From an uncultured Methanosarcinales archaeon (GTDB lineage Archaea; Nanobdellota; Nanobdellia; Woesearchaeales; DATDXC01), in assembly GCA_964510025.1 (NCBI GenBank), contig CAZDZV010000004.1:611-64610 (forward strand): a stretch of 64,000 nucleotides of DNA. Direction: 5' to 3'. Within the stretch, counting starts at the first letter, position 1; every line of letters starts with the position of its first letter. The translations under genes and the position numbers were made by a program. The notes below the pieces were generated by a model. That model was not told where the DNA came from and ran no database searches. It saw only the letters and a program-made list of their open reading frames with translations. Positions 29,867 to 55,842 of this stretch are shown in pieces.

Positions 29867-29869
29867 AAA

Positions 29870-30928: not shown

Positions 30929-30932
30929 CTAT

Positions 30933-34643: not shown

Positions 34644-34689
34644 CAAAATCTTTATAAATGAACATTCTGTTCCAGAATATCGTGATACA

Positions 34690-36997: not shown

Positions 36998-37489
36998 TTA
37001 TGGAACCTTTACGATCAATTCTCCAGCTGTAGACTTGTCAAAATCCTTTCCACCTGGGTCAATCGTATACTTCAAAGAGATTGTTGCTTGTACTTTTTCA
37101 TCATCGTCAGCTAGATCATCGCATGTTCCAATTGAACCATCACGATCGAAAACCACAGTGCCAACATCATTTGTTCCACCTGTTTTATCAAGTGACACCG
37201 CTCCCGCCTGTGCCAAGCAACTATTAGTGTCGTCTTTTATCTCTGAAGTATCCAAAATATCCACATCATCATTCAGGGTGTTCTTAATCTTCAAGCTAAG
37301 TGTACCTGTAGTAGCGCTCCATTTGTCACAAAACAATCCGCTCCCGGTTGGCAGCGTACATTTCTCAGGCAGCATCTCTGTCGGCTTGATGAAATACATC
37401 AATGCGCCTATGGCAATAAGCACAACTAAAATAGCCCAGCCATAGGTCATCAAGAATTCCATAGCAGCTTGTCCTTTTTTTATCATCAT
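36998..37489 (-). CDS. Archaeal type IV pilin-like protein with class III signal peptide
   Basis: 'MMIKKGQAAMEFLMTYGWAILVVLIAIGALMYF': basic leader, Q at +1, E at +5 (QAAMEF). Same 5' context 'aagaggtgaaaaaATG' as the upstream paralogue. The ORF track extends the N-terminus by 10 aa. Confidence 0.75.
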   Translation of the reverse strand: MMIKKGQAAMEFLMTYGWAILVVLIAIGALMYFIKPTEMLPEKCTLPTGSGLFCDKWSATTGTLSLKIKNTLNDDVDILDTSEIKDDTNSCLAQAGAVSLDKTGGTNDVGTVVFDRDGSIGTCDDLADDDEKVQATISLKYTIDPGGKDFDKSTAGELIVKVP

Positions 37490-37502
37490 TTTTTCACCTC
37501 TT

Positions 37503-38099
37503 TTATGGTATCTTAACAATCAGTTGACCTGCTGTGACCTTAGCGAACCCAACAAGTGAATCTGCATCTGCGCCTGCGCCACCGGGTGCGCTATCAGCCC
37601 CAAGAGAAATTTCATCTGTAAAATTCAAACTCACTTGCCCTTGTAATTTTTCGCCAGCAACTATAAGATCGGTAGCAGCACCATAGCAGGTGTCAGCTGC
37701 ATCTTCATCAGCAAGTCCATCCCTACCAAAAACAACTGTCGCTGTACCTTCTTTAGGCAATTGAACAGATACATCTGATGGGTTAGTATATCCCACTAGA
37801 TCTGAATCGACATTTGCATAGCACCTGTCCCCATCATCGTTTTCAATAAAAGACGTGGTTGATACATACAAAGGCTCAGTCATTGAGTTCTTAATCAATA
37901 AAGTAATCTCTGATCCAACTGAATCAGCGCCCCACTGTTCGCAAAATATTCCGCTTCCAGTTGGCAGCGTACATTTCTCTGGTATCATCTCAGTCGGCTT
38001 GATGAAATACATCAATGCGCCGATTGCAATTAAAACAACCAAGATTGCCCAGCCATAAGTCATCAAGAATTCCATAGCAGCTTGAGCTTTTCTTCTCAT
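37503..38099 (-). CDS. Archaeal type IV pilin-like protein with class III signal peptide (paralogue)
   Basis: 'MRRKAQAAMEFLMTYGWAILVVLIAIGALMYFIKPTEMIPEKCTLPTGSG'. The first ~45 aa are nearly identical to the neighbouring gene. C-terminal '...GQLIVKIP'. Confidence 0.8.
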   Translation of the reverse strand: MRRKAQAAMEFLMTYGWAILVVLIAIGALMYFIKPTEMIPEKCTLPTGSGIFCEQWGADSVGSEITLLIKNSMTEPLYVSTTSFIENDDGDRCYANVDSDLVGYTNPSDVSVQLPKEGTATVVFGRDGLADEDAADTCYGAATDLIVAGEKLQGQVSLNFTDEISLGADSAPGGAGADADSLVGFAKVTAGQLIVKIP

Positions 38100-38160
38100 T
38101 TTTTCACCTCTTTTGTTGACATTTGTAGGAACATAACCTACTTACCTTATCTTTGGCACA

Positions 38161-38180
38161 ACTTATATATAAACTTTTTG
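38161..38180 (-). promoter_or_regulatory. TATA-like element upstream of the tandem pilin genes
   Basis: The minus strand reads 'tttatatataagt', ~65-75 nt upstream of the ATG at 38099, with SD 'gaggtg'. Confidence 0.25.
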
Positions 38181-38204
38181 TTTTTGAATATACTAGTATA
38201 GGGA

Positions 38205-41200
38205 TTATGTACCCCACCTCCAGACTCTCGCCTCGACAATAGTAGGCCCCCACATGAAAGGTATCCTGCCTATGCTTACTGTCTCGACATCCAGATCATT
38301 GGCTCCGAACTTCACAAACAGCAGTCCATCATCATCAAAATCAAGCTGGTCAAAAAGCCTGCATATGGCATTGTTTATGGCATCCTGATCATAGTCTGTA
38401 TCGCAGGAAGTGAAAGCGTTGAATGTGCAGTTTGCAGAGCTGTTATAGCTGTTAGGTATAGGCACATCAGCATATGTCCCATCCTCAAATCCAAGCGTCC
38501 AGATGCAGCCCTCTGCCTTTGCAAAGACGCCAGTGTAGTTCATGTCCATCCTTATCCCTATAGTATATATAGCCATGTCATCTGCAGAGCCGATTGATAC
38601 GTTATGGCTGCCCTGTGCTGTTGATATCCTGACAGTATTGTTCCCTGGTCCGAGCAGACCCACAGGGATATTAACTATATATGGGTCTCCCAGATAAGAG
38701 TACTCAACCCCGTAATCAGATATGTTATAGAATGTGTCCCATGCAGAGCCGTTCCACACAGATGCCCTGTCCGTCCATCTTTCTCCTGAATAGGATGTCA
38801 GCTTGGCATCATACAGCAGGACCTGGGGGGGCACTGTAAACGATCCCTGGGTTATATTGTTGCTGAACCTCGGGCTTTCGACGATCACAGGTATCCTTGC
38901 GTATTCAGTCTGGTTCAGCTCAAGGCTGTAGTTGAACTCGATGTATGAATCAGGATATAGCTCATTGCTCACGTTGCCTGTCACATTTGCTGTCTGGGCT
39001 GCAAACTGCAGCTCGATCATGTCGCTGGCTATCTGCCTGTAGATGTCCATCAGCTGCGCAGCATCATTGGCATCATAGGCATGGCTGCAGTCATCGCAGC
39101 ATGCTATATCGTCCATCAGGCCTGTATCTGCTCCAGAGCCGAAAGCCACCGAATATATCCTTATGCCGAACCTGTCAAAAGCATCGCATGCCTTCTGCAC
39201 AGCCTCGTCCTCTGCTCCGCTTAGGTCGTAGTTGCTCCTGGTGCCGATCCTTGTGTTGGCCTCTCCGTCGCTCATCACAAGCATGGACATGAACCTGTCA
39301 TAAGACAGCTCATCGTCGCTCCACTTCAGCGTAAGGTTGAGGTTCCTGAACCTCCAAAGGTCATTGTCGTCATCTGTGTGCAGGCAGCCTGTTGTTGTGC
39401 CGGAAAACAGCCTTATCTCAACATCTGAGCTGTTCAGCACCATCACCGGAACATCTAGCAGAACCTCCTGCCACTCATTGTCTCCTGACCATCTTTGGTA
39501 GTCGATCCTTCCTATATACTGTCCGTTTACGTAAACGCAATCATAAGAATCAGGATTGACATCCAGCGCCTCAAATCTCAGCAGTCCTGCCCTTATCTGG
39601 TCTGTGCCTATGCCTGTATTAAAGACCACGCTGGACGACTCTGCCCCGTCATCCAGCACGACAAGGCTTGGATCAGAAAAGCTTGAATCATGAATCTCCG
39701 AGCTATGCTCCCAGGCTATCAGCTCAACATGCTTCAGGTCCCAGTCATCCTGTTCCCCTGCTGTGTCAAAGCACCCGTTTACATTTGCTCCTGTGACAGT
39801 TATATTATTGGTGCCTGTGTTGGCAACGCTGTAATTTATCTTTACGCTTTCCAGCACCGGCGTCCTTGAGGTGTTTGCAGTTGAGAGGTTTGCCCTCCAC
39901 TGTATATATCTGGAATCTGCCTGGGCTATTGGCCCCGCATCATCATAGGCAGCGCTGCTCCATGCGAAATTATCCCACGAACCATCTGGAACAGCAACGT
40001 CTCCTGTCCTGATCTCAAGGTATATGCTTGTACCGGCTGGCAGCTCATTTTCCCAGCTTATGCTGCCCCAGTCAGCATCGCCCCCTGCATAGTATACCGG
40101 GCTCATTATCCAGCCGTCAGCTGAATATTCTGACGTGAGGTCCCCTTCCTCCATCTCTGGCCCAAAGCTGAGAAAGCTGTCATTCATCGAGAGGTATTGC
40201 GCAGCTATCCAGTCATCAGACCTCGCAGCGTTGGAAAGCCTGAGCTCATCTATCATTCCGTCAAGCTCCTCTTCCCCGCCTGTTCCGTCATGCATCCTGG
40301 TGTTCCCATAGCCTGCCCTGATGTCCCCTGAATGGGCATAGAGCCTCCTGCCTTCCCCAGCGCCAAATTCAGTTCCATCCAGGTATCCTTCAAAGCAGTC
40401 GCCGCAAAAATTATCAGTTCCGTCCCTGAGCCTCAGGGCCACATAATGCCATTCTCCTGTACCGATGCCTGTGCTGAGCCATGTGCCGTCCCAGTCGCTC
40501 TGCCCTGAATCCCTGTTCCATCCTCCAACATATGCATTTCCCGAGCTTAGGTATATATTCAGTCCTCTTGTGCCGCCTCCCTGCTCATATATGATATTCT
40601 TTGCACCTCCATCGATGGTGTCTGCCCTGAACAGCACCTCTATGGTCTTGTCATCCCATGGACCGCCATCGTTTATCTCATCGCTGTTGGCTATTGTGCT
40701 GTAGTCGTTGTTGCCATCATAATCGTAGGCTCCATCCACGATGCCTGAGCTAGAGCCCGGGCAGTTGCCGCATCCAAGATCATTGTTGAAGGAGCTGGAA
40801 TCCTGGTCATCATCCATATGGTACACCCCGATGAAATCATCATCCCATACAGCTGCAGCATCCTGGTCATCTGGTGCGCCGTTGTTGCCGTAGTATACCC
40901 ATATATAACCTGTATCAGAATAGCCGTCTATAGATGCCCTGACCCATACATATGAGCTCCCGCCTTCATCCCATTCCTCTATCTCATGGGCCAGCTGCGC
41001 TCCCTCGTCATCCACAAACCTTATGTCCTGTCCCATGTCCTGGGTTTCGCTGTAGTCTATCCTGGTGCTGTCCAGCCTCACAAGCACTGGAAAATCAGGC
41101 AACTCCCCTTGTCCTGAATTATCAAACGCTATCTTCCTCCTTTTCAGCCAGGCGCTGTCCCACCATGCGTCAGCCTGCTTCAGCACTGCGTCTCCGGGAG

Positions 41201-43082
41201 ATGCCATGACATCCACAAGGCTCTCTGAGCATGCCTGGAAATCTGCCTGGGAGCTTGTGCTCCATTCCCCATATGCAATCCCTGAACTTGGCAGCCACTC
41301 CTCTTTTATTGGATATGAGCATGTATGCCAGCCTGTGCTGTCGTCGTCGTTTGACTCGCACATGCGTCCGAGATAGTGGCCGTTAAGGAACACGCAGTCC
41401 CTGTAGCCATCCTCAACGTCAACGCCTCTGCCGAACAAGGTGAGCCGTGATTTGACAAAAGCGCTCTTGTTGACATCCAGGTTGAAGCTGATCTCTGCAG
41501 ACACAGGCCCTGTGTCCCCGAGATGCCTTGCTGTGCTGTCTGATTGCACCTTCATCTCGCTGCCATACAGCGCTCTTTTCTCAGTCAGCAGCTCTGCAGC
41601 TGTATTTATTCCGCACGATATGCATGTCCACCCGCACCATTCGTCGTAATAGTCATCGATCCTGGACTGCAATGAAGCGTTGTCCCCGGAAAAGGGATGG
41701 AAGGAGCAGACAGGACTGGTCCTTTTTCCGTAGCCTACCAGGCTCACCTCGTTGCCCGGGACGCTTAGCATCTCCTCCACGAATGTCTTGTCTGAACCCT
41801 GGGCAACCCTGTCTCTTCTCTCATGGCAGGGAGAAGATCCGTCGCATATTCCAGGCTCGCTGCAGTCTATATCAACATCGCATCCCCTCATAGAGCCGGT
41901 CCTGTCTGTTATCAGGACAGCATCTGATTTGCCGCCGTAAAAGAAAGTTATGTTCTCTATGCCCAGCCTTATGGGCACTGTTGCCTTGCTTATGGTGTTA
42001 TAGTCCAGCGCCGCTGAGAACACCGAATCGTTGACAAATACGCTTTGCGGCACTGTTGACGTGCTTGTCTCGAACACAGTAACATTGCCCACTGTGAAAT
42101 ACACAGGAGTATTGGACATGAAGTGAAGGAACATGTTGATATTGTTGACCATGCCAGGTATGTAGAAGGAATCATAGATGTTTATGATGCCGTCGATGCC
42201 CGGAAAGAAATATCGTTTCCTGGTTATGTTGTTATAGGCGCCGAGCTCTGATGTCTGGAACTTCAGCTTGAAATATCCTCCTCCGATATATGCATCCTTT
42301 GTAGAGTTGAACGAAAAGAGCATGATGTTGTCTCCCGCGTCAAAATTCGATAGGTAGCTCTCGTTGATCACCCATTTGTCAGCTGTTAGGTTGTGGGGAG
42401 CTGGGCTGGGAGAGACAGCGTAGCTGCCTGAGAAGTTGCCGTTCACATACAGCTCAAAGCTCGAGCCTGCATCCAGCTCCATATACCCATAGTCGATAGA
42501 TGTCAGGGATATAGGGAGCGACAGTATGCCTGTAATGTTCCCCTCTCCGATATATCCTCCGAAATACAGGTAAGCTGCAGAGGTCCGCTCATTTATTTCA
42601 GAAAGGAACACCCTGGATGTCAGGCCTTCCACAGCCCTGTCTTTCTCCATGCCGGTGACCATCTGCTTGGAGGAAATAAGCTGCGTGACAGGCCTGTCTG
42701 TCGATGTGAAGATCGGGTCATCATACCCTTCCACCCAGATGCCGATGCTGTAATCATTGGGTATCAGGGAGCCGATCGTAAGGTTTAAGAGCTGCCTTGC
42801 CTTCTGCTCGCTTCCCTCTATCTGGAACCTCAGGATCTGCTCGACCACTGTCCTGTTGAAATCTGTTACGTTCGTGTTGTTCAGGAAAGCTGCAATATCT
42901 GCATCATCAAACTCGCGCAGCTCCATATCAGAAAGCAGCTGTATCATGTCAGAGGAATAATATACCGCAGAGGTGGTGTCCTGCGCCCTGAGATAGAACA
43001 TGGGCATGAGGATTATCACCACTATTATGAGCATGACTGCGATAAGTGCATCTAGACTAAATAGTATCCCGTTTCTGCCCAT
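38205..43082 (-). CDS. Giant surface adhesin-like protein (1625 aa): pilin-like N-terminal anchor, VWA MIDAS site, LamG-like domain
   Basis: N-terminus 'MGRNGILFSLDALIAVMLIIVVII' (G-1, hydrophobic helix, D+6). MIDAS-like 'VLITDRTGSM'. Laminin_G_3-like 'WHYVALRL...EGYLDG...DELRLSNAARSDDWIAAQY'. Later VWA-like 'LVMSDGEAN...IRIYSVAFGSGADTGL'. Asp-rich stretches and many N-x-S/T sequons. N- and C-terminal ~150 aa are homologous to the second giant gene. Confidence 0.75.
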   Translation of the reverse strand: MGRNGILFSLDALIAVMLIIVVIILMPMFYLRAQDTTSAVYYSSDMIQLLSDMELREFDDADIAAFLNNTNVTDFNRTVVEQILRFQIEGSEQKARQLLNLTIGSLIPNDYSIGIWVEGYDDPIFTSTDRPVTQLISSKQMVTGMEKDRAVEGLTSRVFLSEINERTSAAYLYFGGYIGEGNITGILSLPISLTSIDYGYMELDAGSSFELYVNGNFSGSYAVSPSPAPHNLTADKWVINESYLSNFDAGDNIMLFSFNSTKDAYIGGGYFKLKFQTSELGAYNNITRKRYFFPGIDGIINIYDSFYIPGMVNNINMFLHFMSNTPVYFTVGNVTVFETSTSTVPQSVFVNDSVFSAALDYNTISKATVPIRLGIENITFFYGGKSDAVLITDRTGSMRGCDVDIDCSEPGICDGSSPCHERRDRVAQGSDKTFVEEMLSVPGNEVSLVGYGKRTSPVCSFHPFSGDNASLQSRIDDYYDEWCGWTCISCGINTAAELLTEKRALYGSEMKVQSDSTARHLGDTGPVSAEISFNLDVNKSAFVKSRLTLFGRGVDVEDGYRDCVFLNGHYLGRMCESNDDDSTGWHTCSYPIKEEWLPSSGIAYGEWSTSSQADFQACSESLVDVMASPGDAVLKQADAWWDSAWLKRRKIAFDNSGQGELPDFPVLVRLDSTRIDYSETQDMGQDIRFVDDEGAQLAHEIEEWDEGGSSYVWVRASIDGYSDTGYIWVYYGNNGAPDDQDAAAVWDDDFIGVYHMDDDQDSSSFNNDLGCGNCPGSSSGIVDGAYDYDGNNDYSTIANSDEINDGGPWDDKTIEVLFRADTIDGGAKNIIYEQGGGTRGLNIYLSSGNAYVGGWNRDSGQSDWDGTWLSTGIGTGEWHYVALRLRDGTDNFCGDCFEGYLDGTEFGAGEGRRLYAHSGDIRAGYGNTRMHDGTGGEEELDGMIDELRLSNAARSDDWIAAQYLSMNDSFLSFGPEMEEGDLTSEYSADGWIMSPVYYAGGDADWGSISWENELPAGTSIYLEIRTGDVAVPDGSWDNFAWSSAAYDDAGPIAQADSRYIQWRANLSTANTSRTPVLESVKINYSVANTGTNNITVTGANVNGCFDTAGEQDDWDLKHVELIAWEHSSEIHDSSFSDPSLVVLDDGAESSSVVFNTGIGTDQIRAGLLRFEALDVNPDSYDCVYVNGQYIGRIDYQRWSGDNEWQEVLLDVPVMVLNSSDVEIRLFSGTTTGCLHTDDDNDLWRFRNLNLTLKWSDDELSYDRFMSMLVMSDGEANTRIGTRSNYDLSGAEDEAVQKACDAFDRFGIRIYSVAFGSGADTGLMDDIACCDDCSHAYDANDAAQLMDIYRQIASDMIELQFAAQTANVTGNVSNELYPDSYIEFNYSLELNQTEYARIPVIVESPRFSNNITQGSFTVPPQVLLYDAKLTSYSGERWTDRASVWNGSAWDTFYNISDYGVEYSYLGDPYIVNIPVGLLGPGNNTVRISTAQGSHNVSIGSADDMAIYTIGIRMDMNYTGVFAKAEGCIWTLGFEDGTYADVPIPNSYNSSANCTFNAFTSCDTDYDQDAINNAICRLFDQLDFDDDGLLFVKFGANDLDVETVSIGRIPFMWGPTIVEARVWRWGT

Positions 43083-43092
43083 CTAGCACCTC

Positions 43093-44043
43093 TCATATCT
43101 CCCAGTTCAGTAAGGTCAGGTTATACCTTTCAAGATGGCCTGAATCCAGCTTTACCCAGTCAGGCGTGAAGTTGATCCTGTAGTCTCCGTCTCCAGAATC
43201 TGTCCAGTAATGATAGTCTATTATGCTGCTGTCCCCATGGACGCTGAGCCCCTGTTCGCTTACTTTTATCAGGTTGACCATGCTCTCTATGCCGCAGCAG
43301 CCTGAGCTTGTCAGGTTGTTCTCGAATCTCATCAGGAAGCTCGGTGCATCCCCGCTGTCCACATAATATGAGTTCTCGATGTGCTCCATCAGGTTGCTGA
43401 CGTTCCATTTAACCTTCTTGAAGGTATAGTTGCCTTGATAGGGTGTTGCATTTATGACATTGGTTATCCTGCCAAGGCTGTAGACGATATACAGGGGATC
43501 CTCAAAGCTGTTGATCTTTATCTGGGACTCTATCTGCTGCTCCCTTCTCCAGGATGCGATGCCTGCCGTGTCATCTATGTAAAAAGAGATATTTGTCCAT
43601 ACGACCACATGCCACGGGTCTGTCTGGAAGATATCTGTTTCATGAAGCACCATGCTGACATTTATCTTCAGCTTGTTGGATTCCAGCCTAATATTCTCGA
43701 GCCATTGGGGCAGAGTAGAGCCTATCATCAGGGTGGAATTGGTGCTGTTCACTGTCCCGTACAGCAGGGCTTCCATGAACATCTCCTCAGTATTGTTCAG
43801 GAACTTCCCTTCCCTTATGATATACTCCTCCAGGGCCATCAGCGCCCTGTATGAGCTGATATATATTCCTCTCTCGACGTCCCTCTCAAGGTCCTTGACA
43901 AAATCATTCATCGAGTCTACTCTCATCTCTATCACAGACATCCTCTCGTTTATCCTTTTGTAGCTCGGCATCATGAACACAAAAAGGAAAACAAAAAGGA
44001 AAGCTATCGTCATCAAAGTGAAATACATGCCTTTTTTTTTCAT
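43093..44043 (-). CDS. Membrane-anchored pilin-like/secreted protein (316 aa)
   Basis: N-terminus 'MKKKGMYFTLMTIAFLFVFLFVF' (basic leader + G + hydrophobic helix) with an N-x-S/T-rich ectodomain. Start set at the Met overlapping the upstream stop. Confidence 0.5.
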   Translation of the reverse strand: MKKKGMYFTLMTIAFLFVFLFVFMMPSYKRINERMSVIEMRVDSMNDFVKDLERDVERGIYISSYRALMALEEYIIREGKFLNNTEEMFMEALLYGTVNSTNSTLMIGSTLPQWLENIRLESNKLKINVSMVLHETDIFQTDPWHVVVWTNISFYIDDTAGIASWRREQQIESQIKINSFEDPLYIVYSLGRITNVINATPYQGNYTFKKVKWNVSNLMEHIENSYYVDSGDAPSFLMRFENNLTSSGCCGIESMVNLIKVSEQGLSVHGDSSIIDYHYWTDSGDGDYRINFTPDWVKLDSGHLERYNLTLLNWEI

Positions 44044-47000
44044 CTCCACACCCTCGCCTCCACAACTGTGGGCCCCCACATGAAAGGTATCTTGCCTATG
44101 CTTACTGTCTCGACATCCAGGTCTGAGGGCCCGAATTTTGCAAACAATCTGCCGTCATCGTCAAAGTCAAGCTGCTGGAAGAGCCTGCACATAGCGTCAT
44201 TGACAGCGTCATCCTTGAATTCTGCGCCGCAGTCAGTGCTATCTGTAAAATTGCAGTCCTTTGTGCCGTTGTAGCTAGCTGGTATCATCATGCTTATGTT
44301 TTGGCCGTCCTCGAACATAAGGCTCCAGTTGCATCCCTCTGCCTTGGAAAACACCCCTGAATAGCTCAGGTTTATCTTTATGCCGAGCGTATAGATGGCC
44401 CTGTCAGCAGGGCTTCCGCCAACCCATTCCACTGCGCCTGAGCCGGTCTGTATCCATACTTGATTTTCTCCCTCATGGGTATAGCTCACAGGGATGCTTA
44501 TTATGAATGGGTCGCCTAGAGCATGGTAGTCATAGGACATCTCAGAAAGGTTGAATATATCTATGTAGCCTGTATCCAGCAGCCCCAGATAGCTTGCCCA
44601 CCTGTCGTCTGAATATGATGTTACTTTTGCCTCGAGCAGCTTTGATTCAGATGGTACAAAGAAGCTTCCCTTTGTCTGGTTATTGTTGAATCTCGGAGTC
44701 TCCAGAGTCAAAGGTATCACTGAATAGTCCAGTGATTCATCTATATCCTGATAGACAAACTCTATATAGGATCCCCTTCTTATGACAGAGCTAACGTTGG
44801 ATGAAAGGCTCAGGTTTATCACCTGGGATTCATAGGCAATCTCATAGGCTATAGTGCTGTATATCAGGGCAAGGTCCTCAGCGTTTGAGCCCTTGTAGAA
44901 CTTGCCGTTCGAGACGTTCGCTATCTTCGCTAAAGTGGACGAGCCTGCGTCGCTGCCGAAGCCTTTCGTATATATTGTTATATCGTATTCCTTGGAGATG
45001 TTCTCCGAGAGGTTGATCGCCTCCTCGATGGCCGCTTCTCCGCATTCAGAGCCGTCCAGGCACACATTGGCCTCCCCATCAGTCATCAGCACGATGTATC
45101 TTTTCTCGGCAGTTCCGTTGTTGATGAGTATAGAAGCGCTTCTTTCTATAGCGCACGATAGGCATGTAAGCCCGCTATCTGCATGATATCCCTCGATCTC
45201 CTCATAAAGCATGGTGCGGTTAAGGCTGAGATTGGTGGCGCTGGTGACGCCTGTGCCGTACCTTACAAGCCCAAGCTGGACCTTGTCGCCCAGGATTATC
45301 TCGTCGACGAATTCCCGGTCAAGCTTCTTTGCCAGCCTGATCCTGACAGAATCGCAGATATAGCAGCTCCCGTTTTCAGCTATGCACATCTCGCCCGAGC
45401 ATCCATATCTCTCGCCTATAGGCTCAGACAGGCCGGGGATGCATTGCTCTGTGTTTTCCGTAGCACCCTTGCAGTGGTCTTCTGTGTCACAGCAGGCATT
45501 GCTTGTATCTGTAGAGCAAAGGATCGCCCCGCAGCAATAGTCCATATATGTATAGCATCTTGTCTCAGTGCAGCATCTGACCTCTTCCTGCTCGCATTCA
45601 TATTCAAGCGTTGTCTCATCGCAGCAGCACAGTCCGGAGCACAGGCTGCATTCGCTGCAGCTGACATAGCCCGGATCGCATGAGGCTTCCTCTGTGCAGT
45701 AGAAGGCTCCGTATCTTGTCTGGCCAGTATAGCATTCTGATGCAAGGCATGTGGGATTGAGGGGGTCTCCTGGATCATATGGCCTCCAGCTGATATCATT
45801 GAATATTGGATAGTATATTTCCTCTCCAGGCAGGCATTCATCTGGCGCGCCGCAAAATGGCTTATCCCTGTATACGCAGTTGCAGTAGTAGGCATTCCAG
45901 TCTTTTTCAGACGCGTTGCAGCTGCCTATGCCCGGCCTGCATAGACTGAACGATGTGACGCTATTGCCGTTCTCATCATATCCATAGATCAGCCCAAGAT
46001 TATCGCATATCCTGTCCCCGTAGCTGTCCCTCTGGTACCAGGCACAGTCCTTATACTCATGGAAGCACTGTCCGTCCGGGCAAAACCCAGCAGGGCATGC
46101 TGCTGCACCGCATTCAACAAGCGTGTCATAGCTGAGGCTTCCGTTGGAATAAGGATGAGATGGCGGACAGTCTGTGCTGCAGTTGTCCATCCATAGGCAC
46201 TCTCTGTCGCTGTATACTATTTTTTCAAAATCAGGTGCATCAAAAAAAGCCTCAGGCGCATAAGCCTCGTCTGCCACAGGCCTCTCTGGTGGGCAGTGCG
46301 ATGTCTCGTACCTGCACCAGTCAGGCATATCACCTATGCCGTCATCAGGGCAGCTTGACTGGTTAAGGGCCATAGCATGAGACATTATCTCTCTGTCTGT
46401 CAGTATCCTTTTGTGTATAGCCAGCTCATCCATGCTTGCCCTAAGCTGGCAGCAGCTCTCACTGTACCTGTATCCGATATAGAGCATCTTCCCTATCTGG
46501 ATGGTTCTTCCTCCCCCTGTACCGACCATATGGCCGTCTACATATATCTGGGATTCTGTCTTATTTACAGTAACGGCAATATGCTGCCATTTATCATTTT
46601 TCAGATAAGCTGACGGTGATTGCACCCGAGCATACCAGCAGATGTTTCCTTGTTCAGGGCAGTTGCTGGAAACATAATCCTGCAGGTACCACCAGTTGCC
46701 GTCAGCTCTGGCGTCGAGCAGGTATTGGGATCCCTGGTTCCAGTCTGCTTTTCTCATCCAGAACTCTATTGTCATCGCTTCTGGATCGCCCAGGTCATCC
46801 TCTATCCTTATGAATTGTGAGCCTGTGAATTCTGCAGAGCTGCCGATGACGCCCGTGTCAAGGCCCAGGGCCCCTGAGACATTGACAGTTCTGTTCCATC
46901 CTGATGAGTCCTGCAGCGGCATGCTGTCGAAATGCAGCAACAGCAATGTGTCCTGGTCCGGCCTGATCTCCCTTGAATCCATGCACTCCCTCATGCTGTT

Positions 47001-48227
47001 CGAGGTGTCTGTCACCAGAACAACATCAGATGTCGAGATATTTTTTTCAGCAAGCCCGAACCTGAATGGTATGGTCTTCTTTGACATTTCTGTGTAGTTA
47101 AGCAGATTGGACAGGGTATAGTTGGATATTGTTCTCTGGATAGTGCCGACTCCGGTGTGCTGGTAGACAGTGGTATTGCCTATATTAAAGAAAGTTGACA
47201 CGCTGGCAGCCGGGTTTACTGCATAATCCAGGTAGACCTTCATGGATTTCAGCAGCCCCTGGACAAAAAAGGAAGAATAAAGGTTTATAACCCCGTCTAT
47301 CTCTGGCAGCCAAAAGGTCTCAGTTATGATGTTCCCCCCCTCATATCCGCCGTAGCTGATGCAGCTGCCGTAGCCCCCGCAAATTATCTCATACTTGTCA
47401 TAGAGGTTGGAGGTTGTGTATCCTACCCTTATGAATCCTCCCCCTATGTAAGCATCCTGGATATCATGGAAAGCTACTGTTACATAGTTATCTCCTGCAT
47501 GGAAAAAGCTTGTGTTGGCCTCGATGATGGTTGGTATGGCCTCGGCAGTCTGATTTGTGGCATTAAACCTTCCCACAAATGCGTTGTTCACGAAAAGGTC
47601 AAAATCCTGGACCACCCTCATCTCTATATAGAACGAGTTCACGCTGCTTATCTCCCACGGCAGCACGATCTTTTTGGTGATATTGCCGTTGCCCACGTAT
47701 CCGCCGAAGTACGAATAGACTGCAGATATCTTCTCATCCAGCTCAGACAGGAATACCCTTGAGGTGAATCCCTCGATAGCCTTTTCCCTTTCTATGCCTG
47801 ACACCAGGGCCTTGGCTGAGATGAGCTGCCTCACCCTGCCCAGGGTGTTGTTGAAAACAGGATCATCATATCCCTCTACCCAGAAGCCGAAGTTGACCCG
47901 GCCAGGTATAACATCCCTGGTCGTCAGGTTCATCAGCTTTTCAGCTCTTTCATGATCTCCAGCTACCTTGAATCTCAGCACCTGCTCCATGATCGTCCTG
48001 TTGTAGTCAGTGACATTGCTGTTGTTAAGAAGCTCCCTGACAGCAGCATCATCTATCTCGCCTACCTTTATCTTTGACAGGGACTGCACGATATCGCTTG
48101 AAAAATACATTATCTGGGGATCCTCTTCCTGCTTCACATAAAACATCGGTATTATCACCAGTACAGATATTATGAGCACTGTGGCGATCGTTGCATCAAT
48201 GCTGAAAAAAACACCTCTCTTCACCAT
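44040..48227 (-). CDS. Giant surface adhesin-like protein (1395 aa), paralogue with extreme Cys-rich insert
   Basis: 'MVKRGVFFSIDATIATVLIISVLVII' N-terminus. MIDAS-like 'VVLVTDTSNSM'. LamG-like 'WQHIAVTV...IYVDGHMVG...MDELAIHKRILTDREI'. ~330 aa segment with more than 60 Cys. VWA-like 'IVLMTDGEAN...ITIYTKGFGSDAGSS'. C-terminus '...DFDDDGRLFAKFGPSDLDVETVSIGKIPFMWGPTVVEARVWR' matches the first giant. Confidence 0.75.
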   Translation of the reverse strand: MVKRGVFFSIDATIATVLIISVLVIIPMFYVKQEEDPQIMYFSSDIVQSLSKIKVGEIDDAAVRELLNNSNVTDYNRTIMEQVLRFKVAGDHERAEKLMNLTTRDVIPGRVNFGFWVEGYDDPVFNNTLGRVRQLISAKALVSGIEREKAIEGFTSRVFLSELDEKISAVYSYFGGYVGNGNITKKIVLPWEISSVNSFYIEMRVVQDFDLFVNNAFVGRFNATNQTAEAIPTIIEANTSFFHAGDNYVTVAFHDIQDAYIGGGFIRVGYTTSNLYDKYEIICGGYGSCISYGGYEGGNIITETFWLPEIDGVINLYSSFFVQGLLKSMKVYLDYAVNPAASVSTFFNIGNTTVYQHTGVGTIQRTISNYTLSNLLNYTEMSKKTIPFRFGLAEKNISTSDVVLVTDTSNSMRECMDSREIRPDQDTLLLLHFDSMPLQDSSGWNRTVNVSGALGLDTGVIGSSAEFTGSQFIRIEDDLGDPEAMTIEFWMRKADWNQGSQYLLDARADGNWWYLQDYVSSNCPEQGNICWYARVQSPSAYLKNDKWQHIAVTVNKTESQIYVDGHMVGTGGGRTIQIGKMLYIGYRYSESCCQLRASMDELAIHKRILTDREIMSHAMALNQSSCPDDGIGDMPDWCRYETSHCPPERPVADEAYAPEAFFDAPDFEKIVYSDRECLWMDNCSTDCPPSHPYSNGSLSYDTLVECGAAACPAGFCPDGQCFHEYKDCAWYQRDSYGDRICDNLGLIYGYDENGNSVTSFSLCRPGIGSCNASEKDWNAYYCNCVYRDKPFCGAPDECLPGEEIYYPIFNDISWRPYDPGDPLNPTCLASECYTGQTRYGAFYCTEEASCDPGYVSCSECSLCSGLCCCDETTLEYECEQEEVRCCTETRCYTYMDYCCGAILCSTDTSNACCDTEDHCKGATENTEQCIPGLSEPIGERYGCSGEMCIAENGSCYICDSVRIRLAKKLDREFVDEIILGDKVQLGLVRYGTGVTSATNLSLNRTMLYEEIEGYHADSGLTCLSCAIERSASILINNGTAEKRYIVLMTDGEANVCLDGSECGEAAIEEAINLSENISKEYDITIYTKGFGSDAGSSTLAKIANVSNGKFYKGSNAEDLALIYSTIAYEIAYESQVINLSLSSNVSSVIRRGSYIEFVYQDIDESLDYSVIPLTLETPRFNNNQTKGSFFVPSESKLLEAKVTSYSDDRWASYLGLLDTGYIDIFNLSEMSYDYHALGDPFIISIPVSYTHEGENQVWIQTGSGAVEWVGGSPADRAIYTLGIKINLSYSGVFSKAEGCNWSLMFEDGQNISMMIPASYNGTKDCNFTDSTDCGAEFKDDAVNDAMCRLFQQLDFDDDGRLFAKFGPSDLDVETVSIGKIPFMWGPTVVEARVWR

Positions 48228-48724
48228 ACATACAGCACCAGTCTTATTATCTGTGAGTCGTAGTTGACAAACCTCAGGATCTTGATGAGCTGCTCGGGAT
48301 CTGAATCCTTGTAGTTAGCGCCGATCTCATCCACTCCATCTATGTTCACTGTATTATTGTCCTTATCTTCAAATGTGACGTAGTAGTTCCTGTCTGTCGA
48401 AAGGAGCAGCCTCGACCTGTCATAATCAGCCAGTGCGATATTGTTGAAGTTGCCCACCTTGTTGGCATCCAGGTCCATGCTTCCGTTTGTAAGCCCGATT
48501 ATCACCGCATTTCCTGGTTCCCAGTCTGCGGGATAGCCGCTTGAAACGAGATAGTTTGATACAAGCTTTGCATCGATCAGCAGGTTATCCATGCCCTGTT
48601 CCTTTACATCAAGTGCAGAGGTGCTGTACTGATAGAAGATATAGATGCCTACAGAGAATATCAGCAGCGCTATAGCGATGTCAGCTCCCCACATCTGCGC
48701 TTTAGTTGATGTATATCGTTCCAT
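48221..48724 (-). CDS. Pilin-like protein (167 aa) with N-terminal hydrophobic helix
   Basis: 'MERYTSTKAQMWGADIAIALLIFSVGIYIF' has class-III-like A-1/Q+1 with D at +6. Overlaps both neighbouring genes. Confidence 0.5.
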   Translation of the reverse strand: MERYTSTKAQMWGADIAIALLIFSVGIYIFYQYSTSALDVKEQGMDNLLIDAKLVSNYLVSSGYPADWEPGNAVIIGLTNGSMDLDANKVGNFNNIALADYDRSRLLLSTDRNYYVTFEDKDNNTVNIDGVDEIGANYKDSDPEQLIKILRFVNYDSQIIRLVLYVW

Positions 48725-49079
48725 TTGTCTTGTTTATTATGTTTATGCCCTTGGTGATGGTCCCGGTGACATTAGGTATCTCTTTCCAGAAATCCTGGTT
48801 GTCGGCATGGATGATCACATATTTTCCTTCTATGGATATTGAATAGTTCTTGGTAAGCAGCTTCTCAGGCAGAGTGAATTCCCTGACATAGCCGTCTACG
48901 ACCCTTGCGGCCAGATTTACCTCTTTCTGTATCTTGCTTACCACAGAATCCGCAACCAACAGGAACTTGTTCCTGTTCACTACAGTTGTGTTGTATGCCA
49001 CTGCTCCCATCACAATGGCAAATATGAATAGCATGCCTCCCACAAGAAGCATGAATTCCGTTGATGCCTGCGACTTCAT
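48702..49079 (-). CDS. Archaeal type IV pilin-like protein, class III signal peptide
   Basis: 'MKSQASTEFMLLVGGMLFIFAIVMGAVA': Q+1, E+5, then a hydrophobic helix. Confidence 0.7.
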   Translation of the reverse strand: MKSQASTEFMLLVGGMLFIFAIVMGAVAYNTTVVNRNKFLLVADSVVSKIQKEVNLAARVVDGYVREFTLPEKLLTKNYSISIEGKYVIIHADNQDFWKEIPNVTGTITKGINIINKTNGTIYIN

Positions 49080-49492
49080 GTTGAGTTTATGAATACATAT
49101 CCCTCGTTCGCTTCTACGCTTACATATTGGTATCCCTCTGATGTTTTTATGCTGCCCTTCAAAGGGATAGGAGACAAATAGAAGATATCAGATTCGCCCA
49201 TCCTTGTCTGTACCTTGAAGGATATCTCATAGGCGACATCAGTCGGATCTGCAGGATCAAGGCTATTGAGGTTCACTGAATTTACCCCGCCCGGCATGTA
49301 TATCTTGATGGTGGTTTTGGTCGGCGCGCCGTAGTAGTAGATGGATTCAGCAGTATCGACGATCTCCTTGGATATCTGGTCTATCTGGTTTGTATTTATC
49401 GTGCCTCTGACCTCAGACGAATAATGAGAGGATACAGCTATTATCGACAGAGCTATGAAAGTGGCCACTCCAACAACAAGCACGTATTCCAA
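49076..49492 (-). CDS. Pilin-like protein; annotated TTG start probably too short (upstream in-frame '...RLGQVGLEY' gives a class III signal)
   Basis: From the TTG: 'LEYVLVVGVATFIALSIIAVS'. The in-frame upstream codons read 'ISREIRLGQ|VGLEYVLVV' (Q+1/E+5) with no ATG or GTG. A possible ATT start lies 7 nt after SD 'AAGAGGTG' at ~49528. Confidence 0.55.
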   Translation of the reverse strand: MEYVLVVGVATFIALSIIAVSSHYSSEVRGTINTNQIDQISKEIVDTAESIYYYGAPTKTTIKIYMPGGVNSVNLNSLDPADPTDVAYEISFKVQTRMGESDIFYLSPIPLKGSIKTSEGYQYVSVEANEGYVFINST

Positions 49493-49690
49493 GCCTACCT
49501 GTCCCAGCCTTATTTCTCGAGAAATTCCTATACACCTCTTGGTGGAATATATAAATTACTACTATATAAATTTAATCATATTCTCTCATCCAGCATCCGG
49601 AATATAGTCACTATCTCAGAATTAATACATAGCTTTAAAAAACAAATAGGCAGATAGTATAATTGGGTAGTGGTCAATATAGAATTTAGA
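49493..49690. promoter_or_regulatory. Divergent promoter region between the pilin/adhesin operon (-) and the assembly-machinery operon (+)
   Basis: AT-rich. Duplicated 'atataaatt' boxes ('gaatatataaattactactatataaattt') and SD-like elements facing both ways. Confidence 0.3.
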
Positions 49691-50536
49691 ATGGATGAGA
49701 AAAATATATCCGAAACTGAAAAAGAGCTGATAGGATACATACAAAAGCTGCTTTCTGAAAACCATACTAAGGATGATATCAAAAAAGCATTGCTGGAAGT
49801 GGGATGGCCGGAAGACTATGTAGCATCTATCCTTGAAAACACCGAAAAGCCGCTGATGCAGCCTGCTGATTCTGCGCCAGCTGACCTAAAGACCTATGAG
49901 ACAGAATTTGATAAGATAGTGGATCTGGCAAAAGAAAAAGGGAGCATAAAGGTATCAGCTCTGGCAAAGCATCTGGGAGCAGACAAGAAAAATATCGAGG
50001 AGTGGGCCACTATCCTTGAAGAGCACAACCTTGTTAAGATATATTACCCGCTGATTGGCGAAGCAGAGGTAAGAAAGACAGACTATAAGCCGCCGAAAAA
50101 GCCGAAAAGGCAGCCAAAGAAGGATAAGCCAAAGAAGGATAAGCCAAAAAAGACAGCAAACAGGCCTCTTTGTGTCTCGATAATAGCTGTCCTGTTTTTC
50201 ATCTCAGGCGGCTTTAGCCTTATTTACAGCCTTTTCCTGATGATACAGGGCGGGATGGGAGCTGCTTCAGCAAGCGCAGTGCCTATCGGCGGCCCGATCA
50301 TAGCAGAGATGATTAAGGGATTCTACATCTTCATAGTATTTATCCAGGTATTGGTTGGCGCCTTTTCGATCCTCATAGGGTTGGGCTTATGGAACCTGAA
50401 GAACTGGGCAAGGATAACCGCTATAGTCCTTCACGCCATAGGTATGCTGACCATAATAATGATACCGATATCCATTCTGATCATATATCTTCTTTCGAAA
50501 AAAAGCACCAAGCAGGCATTCATGGAAGTGAGATAA
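49691..50536 (+). CDS. Membrane protein with cytoplasmic winged-helix-like N-domain, Lys/Pro repeat linker and 4 TM helices
   Basis: 'KGSIKVSALAKHLGADKKNIEEWATILEEHNLVKIYYPLIGEAEV' looks wHTH-like. Linker 'KPPKKPKRQPKKDKPKKDKPKK'. C-terminal half is hydrophobic. An alternative GTG start lies at 49670. Confidence 0.5.
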   Translation: MDEKNISETEKELIGYIQKLLSENHTKDDIKKALLEVGWPEDYVASILENTEKPLMQPADSAPADLKTYETEFDKIVDLAKEKGSIKVSALAKHLGADKKNIEEWATILEEHNLVKIYYPLIGEAEVRKTDYKPPKKPKRQPKKDKPKKDKPKKTANRPLCVSIIAVLFFISGGFSLIYSLFLMIQGGMGAASASAVPIGGPIIAEMIKGFYIFIVFIQVLVGAFSILIGLGLWNLKNWARITAIVLHAIGMLTIIMIPISILIIYLLSKKSTKQAFMEVR

Positions 50537-53912: not shown

Positions 53913-53932
53913 ATTCGTAAACTTTATATATC

Positions 53933-54649
53933 ATGCACTATAGGTATTTTTTGATGGCTATAGAGAGGATAGCGACAGGCATAGCCGGGCTGGACGGCCT
54001 TGTGGGAGGCGGATTCAAGCGCAACACCATAAACCTTATAGCTGGAGCTCCTGGCACAGGAAAGACCATATTCGCTGTCCAGTTTATCATGGAGGGGATA
54101 AGGAAAGGGGAGCCCGGCGTCTACATAACTTTCGAGGAAAAGAAGAAAAATGTCTATGAAGACATGCTGGAATTTGGATGGGATCTTGAAAAAGCCGAGA
54201 AGGAGGGGAAATTTATCTTTATGGAATACACCCCTGAGCAGGTCAAGAACATCCTGACAGAAGGCGGAGGCATTGTTGAGTCAGTTATCGAGAAGACAAA
54301 AGCAAGAAGGATAGTCATTGACTCCATAACCTCATTCACCCTGCTCTATGGGGACGAGCTTACAAAAAAAGAGGCTGCACTTGCCTTATTTGAGCTGATC
54401 TCAAAGTGGAACTGCACCGGGCTTCTGACGTCCCAGGATATCTCCAAGGATGAACTTACGATATCAACTGCGCTGGAGTTTGAGGTTGACGGCATAATCC
54501 TTGTTTATCATGTCAGAAAAAAAGGCACAAGGATAAGGGCTATAGAGATACTTAAGATGAGGGGTACAAAGATACCTGAAAAGACATTCCAGCTTGAGAT
54601 AACAAATAAGGGTATCAAGATCAATACCCAGAAGATAGAGATGCTGTAA
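53933..54649 (+). CDS. KaiC/RecA-superfamily ATPase (FlaH-like)
   Basis: 'IATGIAGLDGLVGGGFKRNTINLIAGAPGTGKTIFAVQF' is the KaiC/RadA-like P-loop context. 238 aa, matching FlaH size. Confidence 0.7.
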   Translation: MHYRYFLMAIERIATGIAGLDGLVGGGFKRNTINLIAGAPGTGKTIFAVQFIMEGIRKGEPGVYITFEEKKKNVYEDMLEFGWDLEKAEKEGKFIFMEYTPEQVKNILTEGGGIVESVIEKTKARRIVIDSITSFTLLYGDELTKKEAALALFELISKWNCTGLLTSQDISKDELTISTALEFEVDGIILVYHVRKKGTRIRAIEILKMRGTKIPEKTFQLEITNKGIKINTQKIEML

Positions 54650-54663
54650 AAAAAGGTGATAGG

Positions 54664-55842
54664 ATGATAAAGGTTAAGGAACTGATGGTCAAGGATGTAA
54701 TAACGATAAATGCTGATGAGAGCGCCTATAGGGCAAGCGAGATCATGGCTGACAATTCTGTAAGCTGCCTTATAGTGATGGAAGACAGCAAGCCTATCGG
54801 CGTTTTAAGCGAGAGAAGCCTGGTGCATGACGTCCTTCTTAAGGAAAAAAATCCTAAAGACACCAGGGTTTCAGACATAATGAAAAAGATCAGCACCATG
54901 GGCCCTGATGAGCATTTCTTTTCCCTGGTTGAATACATGAGAAAGAACAACCTCAGGAGGGTTGTCATCGTAGATAAGGGCCAGCTGGCAGGCATCGTCA
55001 CAGAGACAGATGTCGTAAGGACATCCATAAGGCTCCAGAACTACCTGGAATCCAAGGCAATGGGAAAGGCAAAGAAAGGCGCTCTCATGAACAAGCTGGG
55101 CGACATACAGTTCGGCGTAAGAAAGATGAGCGCCGGATACAAGGACCTCAATGAGATCCTGCATGGAGGTTTTCCCTACAACAAGAGCATATTGCTGGTG
55201 GGCTCGCCTGGTTCAGGCAAGGGCCTGGTTGCTTTCACCTATATGAAGGAAGGGCTCATCTCGAAAAATAAGGTGGTTTATATCTGTATGAACGAGTTTC
55301 TCAAGGATATAGAGGGGCTCTTTGCATCTATTGGGGTGGATATAAACGATCATCTGAAGAAAGGCAATTTTGGCCTGATAAATATGTATAAGCAGATAAT
55401 CGATGACCCAAAAAGGATATTTAACGAGGAAGACCAGCTCCTGCTGAAGGAGTTTTCAGTCATCAAGGAGACGCTTCTTAACATAATCAAGGAATCAGAG
55501 GTCCCTATAAGGTGCGTTGTAAATGTCATTACCCAGTCATTGGTACTCCACAAGGAAGGAGTGGTCTATAAGTTCATATTGAGGCTGAATAATCTCCTAA
55601 AGGAGAACAACATTACTTCCCTCTTCTTTATCCACAGGGGGAAGAAAGATGACCAGTTTTCGGTCTCTATGGAGGAGATCATGGACGGGGTCCTGGATTT
55701 CAGCACAGAGAATGTGGGGCCACATGAGAAGAGGATTCTTACCCTGAAAAAGATGAAGCCTGAATTTGCCCATCTCCCGCTATACTACTACTACCAGTTT
55801 GACCGCACCAGGAACATGATGATAGACAGGATGAAGGATTAG
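54664..55842 (+). CDS. CBS-pair + KaiC-like ATPase-domain fusion protein with atypical Walker A (GSGKG)
   Basis: Two CBS-like repeats (aa 1-125; 'VKDVITI...', 'RRVVIVDKGQLAGIVTETDVV'). KaiC-like 'ILHGGFPYNKSILLVGSPGSGKGLVAFTY', with Gly replacing the Ser/Thr after the P-loop Lys. Confidence 0.65.
   Translation: MIKVKELMVKDVITINADESAYRASEIMADNSVSCLIVMEDSKPIGVLSERSLVHDVLLKEKNPKDTRVSDIMKKISTMGPDEHFFSLVEYMRKNNLRRVVIVDKGQLAGIVTETDVVRTSIRLQNYLESKAMGKAKKGALMNKLGDIQFGVRKMSAGYKDLNEILHGGFPYNKSILLVGSPGSGKGLVAFTYMKEGLISKNKVVYICMNEFLKDIEGLFASIGVDINDHLKKGNFGLINMYKQIIDDPKRIFNEEDQLLLKEFSVIKETLLNIIKESEVPIRCVVNVITQSLVLHKEGVVYKFILRLNNLLKENNITSLFFIHRGKKDDQFSVSMEEIMDGVLDFSTENVGPHEKRILTLKKMKPEFAHLPLYYYYQFDRTRNMMIDRMKD

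Follow-up and report, generated by a model that had tools for sequence, protein, structure and literature searches.

What are two adjacent KaiC-family genes, one of active type and the other fused to a tandem CBS pair and altered at its catalytic residues, doing at an archaeal pilus locus? The question is raised by a stretch of 64,000 nucleotides of contig CAZDZV010000004.1 (assembly GCA_964510025.1; this whole stretch is called the window here), in which the genes for a pilus assembly ATPase and two platform proteins are followed by a canonical KaiC-like ATPase gene, KaiC-1, and by the gene for the fusion protein, CBS-KaiC (Table 1). Most DPANN archaea live as episymbionts that depend on a host; their pili are obvious candidates for attachment to it, and the regulation of these pili is largely unexplored. 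The available data are compatible with a model in which the KaiC pair is a conserved accessory module of the DPANN (Woesearchaeota/Nanoarchaeota) pilus and exerts an ArlH-like ring control, with ligand sensing by the CBS pair, over the pilus ATPase; on the sequence and comparative analysis below, we give this reading a probability of about one half.

The KaiC-type domain of CBS-KaiC carries substitutions in Walker A, in the catalytic Glu-Glu pair and in Walker B. A preliminary description of this DNA had reported a 392-aa protein with a tandem CBS pair, a second KaiC-like domain and a Walker A motif in which Gly replaces Ser/Thr, and all of this holds up. PF00571 (Pfam CBS) matches in two stretches (E=2.8e-20, 72.8 bits, cutoff 24), PF06745 (Pfam KaiC) matches residues 157-365 (E=1.7e-27, 96.8 bits, Pfam gathering cutoff 26.6), and fold matches of the C-terminal domain agree with the latter; the GSPGSGKG motif stays non-canonical when aligned column for column with the GxxGxGKT of KaiC-1, PH0284, PH0186 and KaiC. 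Alignment of the Walker B and catalytic Glu positions, a check proposed at the time, adds two changes that had not been listed, N210 and N287, and the trans-acting LKMRG motif reads KKMKPE.

How old are these changes? The family was gathered by a word-indexed search (13 proteins), a profile search of 1.84 billion representative proteins and a divergent-branch profile search, and its motifs were tallied in 26 sequences, namely the window protein and 25 other members. The first catalytic Glu is missing in all 26, with Asn, Lys, Gly or Thr instead, and the Walker B Asp position holds Asn in 22 of the 25 other members, Asp in two and Ser in one. At the Walker A Ser/Thr position, 15 of these members have Gly, seven have Ser/Thr and three have other residues; in P0023 and P0165 the P-loop is gone entirely (GPTSFEKK/R). 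Since the first Glu is never kept and the Walker B Asp nearly never, the catalytic loss is ancestral to the family, and the Walker A Gly, which only part of the family shares, is a later and partial change. The P-loop Gly, which had been taken for the lesion, is thus present but does not define the family. Specifically, subclade A, to which the window protein belongs, has a short linker, GKG, CMNE and KKMKPE, and subclade B has a linker longer by ~10-20 residues and includes several members with canonical GK(S/T).

No member has a broken reading frame, and at 33-57% identity the family still shows many invariant positions; the gene is thus under purifying selection, and the reading of CBS-KaiC as a decaying pseudogene is rejected. 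A chance origin of the domain assignments is excluded by the E-values together with the conservation in 25 homologues. Judged by its motifs, CBS-KaiC is a conserved, anciently inactivated pseudo-ATPase. Between the same pairs of genomes, its identity is 48-54%, compared with 69-76% for KaiC-1, 68-73% for the pilus ATPase and 53-66% for the TadC platform proteins, so that CBS-KaiC is the fastest-evolving cytoplasmic component in those pairs; this is the pattern expected of a regulatory pseudoenzyme.

Does the altered pocket still hold a nucleotide? In FlaH, the engineered Walker B mutant D122N lost most of its ATP binding (PMC5019145), and by this analogy the RecA pocket of CBS-KaiC, with its natural Asn287 and without the Mg2+ ligand, probably binds Mg-ATP poorly. 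An alternative holds that the site is not inert but binds ATP and perhaps autophosphorylates via a non-canonical pocket, in which case CBS-KaiC would be the sole ArlH equivalent and KaiC-1 would have a separate role. Retention of the P-loop Lys and the glycine-rich loop in nearly all members is consistent with such binding, as are the seven members that keep GKS/T and the precedent of ArlH, an ATP binder without hydrolysis. Yet the residue whose D-to-N exchange so strongly cut ATP binding in FlaH is Asn in the great majority of the family, most of the window's subclade is without the Mg2+-ligating Ser/Thr, and P0023 and P0165 are without a P-loop, which leaves an ATP-binding CBS-KaiC unlikely.

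The sensing function proposed for CBS-KaiC would lie in its N-terminal part. The AlphaFold model, in which the linker and residues 150-169 are of poor quality, is of moderate confidence overall (mean predicted local distance difference test, pLDDT, 72.5). Its C-terminal RecA-type alpha/beta domain finds its best solved matches in PH0284 and KaiC CI (Foldseek E about 2e-15, target template-modelling score, TM, about 0.75), and residues 2-128 are matched by solved CBS proteins, best by 4fry, MJ1225 and Ta0289. In CBS2 the ribose-binding-type motif G-h-h-T-x-x-D reads GIVTETD, and residues G110, I111, V112, T113, T115 and D116 are invariant across subclade A; the CBS1 counterpart is GVLSERS in the window protein, and subclade B has G-h-h-T-E-R-D there. 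Because the CBS2 motif is intact, ligand binding by the pair is plausible, with AMP, ADP, ATP, S-adenosylmethionine (SAM) and cyclic di-AMP (c-di-AMP) as candidates that sequence does not distinguish.

KaiC-1, in turn, looks like a KaiC-CI-like single-domain ATPase that is competent for hydrolysis by its motifs. The preliminary description had placed both reading frames correctly on the plus strand and had given the first protein 238 residues, a KaiC/RecA fold and an intact GAPGTGKT P-loop. The 238-aa frame does exist as the longest open reading frame (53933-54649), PF06745 matches its residues 14-233 (E=3.9e-59, 200.3 bits), and the aligned motifs are intact throughout: Walker A GAPGTGKT, the catalytic Glu-Glu (ITFEE), Walker B RIVIDSIT and the trans-acting LKMRGT. 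The assigned length, however, needs correction. Orthologues in related loci, which are 62-76% identical and likewise retain all catalytic motifs, have 231-234 residues and begin M-A-I-K/E-R-I, and the 238-aa form has no entry in the protein collection, in which neighbouring window proteins are present; for these reasons the true start is probably ATG 53954, giving 231 residues.

The label "FlaH-like" that had been attached to this protein does not survive comparison with the subfamily models. KaiC-1 scores 43.4 bits with the ArlH model NF052589 (cutoff 215), 48.4 bits with the FlaH subfamily model PRK06067 (cutoff 194) and 152 bits with the circadian KaiC equivalog model (cutoff 408); CBS-KaiC scores 38.1, 39.6 and 65 bits, respectively, and neither protein reaches any of the three cutoffs. 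FlaH 4YDS is not among the solved-structure matches of KaiC-1 at E<=1e-3 and matches CBS-KaiC weakly (E=8.5e-6). The closest solved relatives of KaiC-1 are true KaiC proteins (E=9e-67), and it aligns with the CI as well as with the CII domain.

These comparisons also bear on the proposal that the pair are recombination mediators of RadA-paralogue type (aRadC-like), acting on DNA taken up or exchanged via the pilus. The RecA-like fold is shared, and the solved relatives include PH0284 and Sso2452 (2w0m), a RadA paralogue. KaiC-1 is nevertheless far nearer to KaiC than to RadA or RadB, which it matches only at E about 1e-3 to 1e-8, and the module contains no DNA-binding or nuclease genes. We know of no recombination mediator that combines a CBS pair with a dead ATPase, and we regard this proposal as the least probable of all those considered.

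The two genes are tightly coupled: 14 nt separate the stop codon of KaiC-1 from the start of CBS-KaiC, which is preceded by a GGTGA Shine-Dalgarno-like sequence at 54655-54659, and tblastn finds no further KaiC or CBS genes in the window. Upstream of KaiC-1 lies a TATA-box-like element, and four of five related loci (L001, L002, L006 and L007) have a similar TTTA(T/A)A(T/A)A element between about -24 and -37 relative to KaiC-1; in the fifth, L008, the listed TTG start of KaiC-1 is uncertain. The element may be a separate promoter for the KaiC pair, with an mRNA that is leaderless or nearly so, with the caveat that such strings are frequent in AT-rich spacers.

Taken together, these features can be arranged into a mechanism. 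KaiC-1 would be the catalytically competent member, and CBS-KaiC a paralogue that lost its Mg2+ and water-activation residues long ago and gained an N-terminal CBS pair via a helical linker, the CBS module replacing the ligand sensing that went with the dead nucleotide pocket. Co-produced from the coupled genes, the two proteins would form a hetero-oligomeric RecA-type ring or stacked rings, in which the dead CBS-KaiC subunit serves as scaffold and sensor, KaiC-1 carries out ATP turnover or autophosphorylation, and CBS-KaiC possibly lends the trans-acting Lys of KKMKPE to the KaiC-1 active site. An adenosyl ligand on the CBS pair would then alter the state of the ring, and the ring, docked on the hexameric pilus assembly ATPase as ArlH is on ArlI, would switch pilus assembly on or off. 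That energy or adenylate status gates filament assembly had been suggested before and is a reasonable hypothesis. A more specific version, in which active and dead paralogues alternate or stack in an ArlH-like ring on a non-motility pilus and the CBS sensor gates assembly, and hence host attachment, by the symbiont's energy or second-messenger state, is possible, though more probably wrong than right.

Table 1. Features of the KaiC pair and of the adjoining pilus locus, in window coordinates.
Feature	Position	Strand	Evidence
KaiC-1, canonical single-domain KaiC-like ATPase, 231 aa	53954..54649	+	PF06745, motifs, orthologue lengths
TTTATATA, TATA-box-like element, centre ~27 nt upstream of ATG 53954	53923..53930	+	read from sequence
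CBS-KaiC, 392 aa: tandem CBS pair, helical linker and catalytically degenerate KaiC/RecA-fold domain	54664..55842	+	Pfam, AlphaFold, Foldseek
CBS pair (Bateman module), residues 4-125	54673..55038	+	PF00571, two stretches
Degenerate Walker A GSPGSGKG, residues 180-187; Gly187 replaces the Mg2+-ligating Ser/Thr	55201..55224	+	alignments
N210-E211 replacing the catalytic Glu-Glu pair (KaiC CI E77/E78)	55291..55296	+	MNE aligned with FEE/LEE of KaiC-1, PH0284, KaiC
N287 replacing the Walker B Asp; hhhhD reads CVVN (VIDS to VVNV)	55522..55524	+	alignments
Pilus assembly ATPase, T2SSE / FlaI-TadA type, 504 aa	50538..52052	+	PF00437 E=1e-36
Two consecutive platform genes (TadC/FlaJ-like), one T2SSF domain each	52045-52938, 52941-53912	+	PF00482 E=5e-16, 3e-15
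288-aa protein directly upstream of the ATPase gene, poorly conserved	49670..50536	+	
Divergent pilin and adhesin arm	36998..49519	-	N-termini, Pfam LamG and VWA
Three small pilin-like genes	49076-~49519, 48702-49079, 48221-48724	-	
Two giant proteins, 1395 aa and 1625 aa, LamG and VWA	44040-48227, 38205-43082	-	
Two tandem pilin paralogues, 198 aa and 173 aa	37503-38099, 36998-37519	-	
RimB-like retropepsin	55880-56227	+	PF05618 E=2e-16
RimK ATP-grasp ligase	56224-57315	+	PF08443 E=3e-45

Does the pair belong to the pilus next to it? The FlaI and FlaJ homologues that the preliminary description had noted nearby are indeed present, as a FlaI-type T2SSE ATPase gene and two FlaJ/TadC-type platform genes immediately upstream. 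The fusion itself is rare: ~12 clusters (50% identity) match the CBS-KaiC profile at full length among the 1.84 billion representatives, and below them the matches cover the CBS region only. A scan of metagenome contigs, for which the full-family alignment yielded a pattern from the CBS part alone, likewise returned 80 loci that are all CBS-only and carry no information on the context of the fusion. A pattern scan of one genome per species (185,579 species) returned four CBS-KaiC loci, labelled Nanoarchaeota (one), Woesearchaeota (two) and, for an 8-kb contig, Methanosarcinales (one); this last contig may be mis-binned, because its KaiC-1 is 91% identical to that of L006. Ten distinct loci were compared (the window, L002, L006/L007, L008, the P0008 locus, L001, L003-L005, L170, L168 and L169). 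A canonical KaiC gene adjoins CBS-KaiC in nine of the ten and pilus platform genes (T2SSF/TadC) in seven, with the order ATPase-TadC-TadC kept. The second domain is thus KaiC-like with a non-canonical P-loop, and the fusion is rare and mostly linked to pili, so that neither of the two refuting outcomes named in the preliminary description has come about.

In subclade A, this KaiC gene immediately precedes CBS-KaiC and has the same orientation; where coordinates were read, 0-53 nt separate the two. The order of the window, that is ATPase, TadC, TadC, KaiC-1, CBS-KaiC, RimB and RimK, recurs in L002 with an inserted degenerate third KaiC and IS66, and in L006/L007 with a 256-aa gene and a canonical third KaiC. 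The P0008 locus has ATPase, TadC, TadC, KaiC and CBS-KaiC; L008 has a TadC fragment, a 243-aa gene, KaiC-1, CBS-KaiC, RimB and RimK; and L001 has CorA, one TadC, KaiC-1 and CBS-KaiC. In L003-L005 an insertion sequence (IS) transposase stands directly upstream of CBS-KaiC, which makes the context uninformative. In subclade B, an operon of ATPase, TadC, TadC, KaiC-2 and KaiC-1 is convergent with CBS-KaiC in L170, and CBS-KaiC is convergent with a canonical KaiC-2 in L168 and L169. Two candidate KaiC genes were rejected, as the 243-aa gene of L008 encodes a secreted protein and the gene upstream of CBS-KaiC in L003 an IS DDE transposase.

Some of these loci show features of their own. In L003 (1-684, plus strand), and also in L004 and L005, all of Woesearchaeota UBA9638 type, an IS-family DDE transposase gene precedes CBS-KaiC and msrB follows it; a rearrangement seems to have cut CBS-KaiC off from the pilus genes and KaiC-1 here, and its reading frame is nonetheless intact. 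A third KaiC paralogue, absent from the window, sits between the second platform gene and KaiC-1 in L006 (8525-9247, plus strand), where it is canonical. In L002 (6775-7575, minus strand) the third KaiC is inverted and degenerate (GVSGTMKS, IEQ) and lies beside an IS66 transposase gene. L170 carries a distinct canonical KaiC-2 type, the same type as the partner in L168 and L169. A pilus locus can thus hold either two or three KaiC paralogues. A further and more extreme degenerate KaiC-like paralogue is found a few kb from the CBS-KaiC/KaiC-2 pair in L168 (15206-15775, plus strand) and L169 (18372-18941, plus strand), as 189-aa DUF7504 or weakly KaiC-like proteins without a P-loop (VDPKTCQS).

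The same neighbourhoods can be read differently, with the pair as a general KaiC-type signalling module, one of the "signal transduction hubs", whose output is not the pilus (transcription, as for CirA in Haloferax, or something else) and whose adjacency to pilus genes reflects a lineage-specific gene order. L168 and L169 fit this reading, as they carry the pair with no T2SSE or T2SSF gene within 10 kb and with only weak pilin-like N-termini nearby; so do the possible separate promoter before KaiC-1 and the wider synteny that related loci share (purA, CorA, RimBK). CirA itself, a KaiC-like protein, adjoins arl genes, acts on arl transcription, represses motility genes and is pleiotropic (PMC10983859). 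On the other hand, the pair comes directly after platform genes on the same strand in six subclade-A loci, it is still found beside the pilus operon in L170 of the divergent subclade B despite the changed orientation, and no DNA-binding domain or KaiB-like partner is seen in or beside it. We see this general signalling role as possible, with the odds clearly against it.

Several observations nevertheless weigh against control of the pilus by the pair, and they temper the probability given above. Besides the two subclade-B loci without pilus motor genes nearby, the pair in L001 is preceded by a single platform gene with CorA upstream, and the TATA-like box before KaiC-1 suggests a transcription unit of its own. 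The genomes behind most of the loci are related and share much of their gene order, purA and CorA included, so that the adjacency counts overstate the number of independent observations. The seven members with canonical GKS/T imply that nucleotide binding in the RecA pocket may persist in some of the family. Three elements of the model, namely the heteromer, its docking on the pilus ATPase and the binding of a ligand, are inferred. Finally, the true partner in function could be RimB and RimK, whose genes come immediately after CBS-KaiC in four loci.

In this last case, the pair would be a nucleotide-sensing regulator of the RimB/RimK post-translational glutamylation system and not of the pilus. 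The arrangement in the window is suggestive, with the RimB gene 37 nt downstream of CBS-KaiC on the same strand and an overlap of 4 nt between RimB and RimK, and the two genes hold the same position in L002, L006/L007 and L008. They are absent beside the pair in L001, the P0008 locus, L170, L168 and L169, where the KaiC partner persists, and this distribution makes such a partnership highly unlikely. Whether RimB and RimK are members of the KaiC module at all is uncertain. The known bacterial substrate of RimK is ribosomal protein bS6, which archaea, to our knowledge, do not have.

To return to the filament that the KaiC pair is proposed to control, the locus is, by its gene content, a non-archaellum type IV pilus system with two platform genes. 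The window ATPase reaches 297 bits with the NCBIfam FlaI model, whose cutoff is 550, and is for this reason not an archaellum FlaI; Pfam and NCBIfam models detected neither the Arl accessory families (ArlF/G/CDE/X) nor archaellins at the locus. The split pair of platform genes is also found in L002, L006, L170 and the P0008 locus. In this it matches the systems with two platform genes that have been described for methanogens and DPANN archaea (PMC4858521; bioRxiv 10.64898/2026.04.22.720090).

The remainder of the locus is consistent with a surface filament. The 288-aa protein upstream of the ATPase has same-position counterparts in L002, L006 and the P0008 locus, with ~24% of its length alignable between loci. 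The divergent arm encodes proteins with N-termini of class III signal-peptide type (KGQA/AMEFLMTYGWAILVV, MKSQASTEFMLLVGG and RG/VFFSIDATIATVLII), and the arm, including counterparts of its giant proteins, is also present in L002, L006 and the P0008 locus. The giant proteins have pilin-like class III signal-peptide N-termini as well; the 1625-aa protein carries in addition DUF2341, the 1395-aa protein has a very Cys-rich centre, and both are probably pilus-borne adhesins. The tandem pilin paralogues, whose N-terminal parts are almost identical (KGQA/AMEFLMTYGWAILVVLIAIGALMYFIKPTEM), are probably major pilins that arose by recent duplication.

The first of the three small pilin-like genes (49076-49519) poses a start-codon problem. 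Its longest canonical reading frame begins at a TTG inside the apparent mature N-terminus (…RLG/QVGLEYVLVVG), and an in-frame upstream ATT, ~7 nt past a GAGGTG Shine-Dalgarno-like sequence, gives the class III signal peptide (M)SREIRLG/Q. Since the ATT start would yield a proper signal peptide, the gene probably uses this non-canonical start. The orthologue in L002 is also without an upstream ATG, and that in L006 has MLKKRG/QVAVEY.

Elsewhere in the window, a 1026-aa protein with a signal-peptide-like hydrophobic N-terminus (judged by eye) and no Pfam match is encoded at 57354-60434 (plus strand), between RimK and a gene for a CorA Mg2+ transporter (60431-61372, minus strand). A run of genes of sugar-metabolism type at 28286-35703 (plus strand) comprises an FGGY kinase, a xylose-isomerase-like TIM barrel, a GFO/IDH/MocA oxidoreductase, a PfkB kinase and an aspartate-semialdehyde dehydrogenase; DPANN genomes are usually metabolically reduced, and this run stands out against that background. 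A role of the locus in anti-phage defence was considered and rejected, as PADLOC gave marginal superfamily matches only (mad8 23 bits, AbiO 20 bits).

What would follow if the pair does control the pilus ATPase? A KaiC-type regulator would then be known for a non-archaellum filament, in a system small enough for biochemical work, and with it an example of a pseudoenzyme paired with its own active paralogue. Its CBS sensor could link energy or nucleotide status to the assembly of a surface structure, and the idea of KaiC-like signalling hubs in archaea would gain a new input domain. The CBS-KaiC architecture and its pairing with an active paralogue are well supported and appear to be new, and the module is probably a new regulatory add-on to pilus machinery of a known kind. 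As a step forward this is incremental: that KaiC-like ATPases accompany archaeal pilus loci was already known, and so was the precedent of ArlH.

The preliminary description had not recognised the CBS-KaiC fusion from described archaellum or pilus systems, and no description of it was found in the searchable literature, with Makarova et al. 2017 (mBio), a possible lister of KaiC fusions, lying outside that search, so that "undescribed" is provisional. The closest functional precedent is the KaiC-like ArlH (FlaH), a hexameric ATP binder without hydrolytic activity that regulates the motor ATPase through nucleotide-dependent contact (PMC5019145, PMC8978795). Both systems place a single KaiC/RecA-fold domain beside a type-IV-filament ATPase and a platform gene, and CBS-KaiC could plausibly act in a similar way. 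ArlH, however, has retained the Ser/Thr of Walker A and the Asp of Walker B and has neither a CBS pair nor a second, active KaiC partner; of the two window proteins, KaiC-1 keeps Walker A, Walker B and the catalytic Glu-Glu, whereas CBS-KaiC is without the Ser/Thr and the Asp. The window locus also differs in being without archaellins or ArlF/G/CDE/X and in having two T2SSF genes as opposed to the single ArlJ.

KaiC-family ATPases recur beside archaeal pilus loci, including systems with two tadC-like genes, and have been predicted to be regulators (Makarova, Koonin and Albers 2016, PMC4858521). KaiC-1 fits the description of these pilus-associated single-domain ATPases (arCOG01171/01174/01175 for the known ones) by its motifs and its T2SSE/TadC context, which is seen in the window, L002, L006/L007, L008, the P0008 locus, L001 and L170. 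Those on record are canonical ATPases, some of which have KaiB or DEATH-like partners, and the searchable literature mentions no obligate CBS-fused dead KaiC partner for them. In the sections of the preprint that concern system 1 of DPANN, the two-platform type, and in a term search of it, no KaiC accessory was found (bioRxiv 10.64898/2026.04.22.720090). The parts of the same preprint on the subsystem 4B pilus loci of Thermoproteus tenax do place a RecA/KaiC-like ATPase and CBS proteins by a filament cluster, which suggests the same regulatory logic; there, however, CBS and RecA-like domains are in separate proteins, the pilus subsystem and the phylum are others, and those parts describe neither fusion nor inactivation.

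Cyanobacterial KaiC shares the Pfam domain, and its Walker A, Glu-Glu, Walker B and Lys/Arg-finger motifs align with KaiC-1. The succession of two KaiC-type domains that differ in role is reminiscent of CI and CII, although here they are two single-domain genes, one of them dead, in place of a tandem CI-CII fusion of ~500 aa. Where KaiC has its phosphorylation sites S431/T432, alignments read by eye show Glu-Phe for KaiC-1 and Glu-Glu for CBS-KaiC; with its single domain and without the phosphorylation-site pair, KaiC-1 is not a clock KaiC. Neither the window nor the related loci have a KaiB-like (thioredoxin-fold) gene beside the pair, and no KaiA gene was seen beside it, with no search aimed at KaiA. 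Lastly, in the known Bateman-sensor fusions (IMPDH, MgtE, ClC, AMPK gamma, CBS-pyrophosphatase), a tandem CBS pair likewise stands N-terminal to an effector via a helical connector, with the ribose-binding-type motif intact; in CBS-KaiC, the effector is a catalytically dead RecA-type domain instead of an enzyme or a channel.

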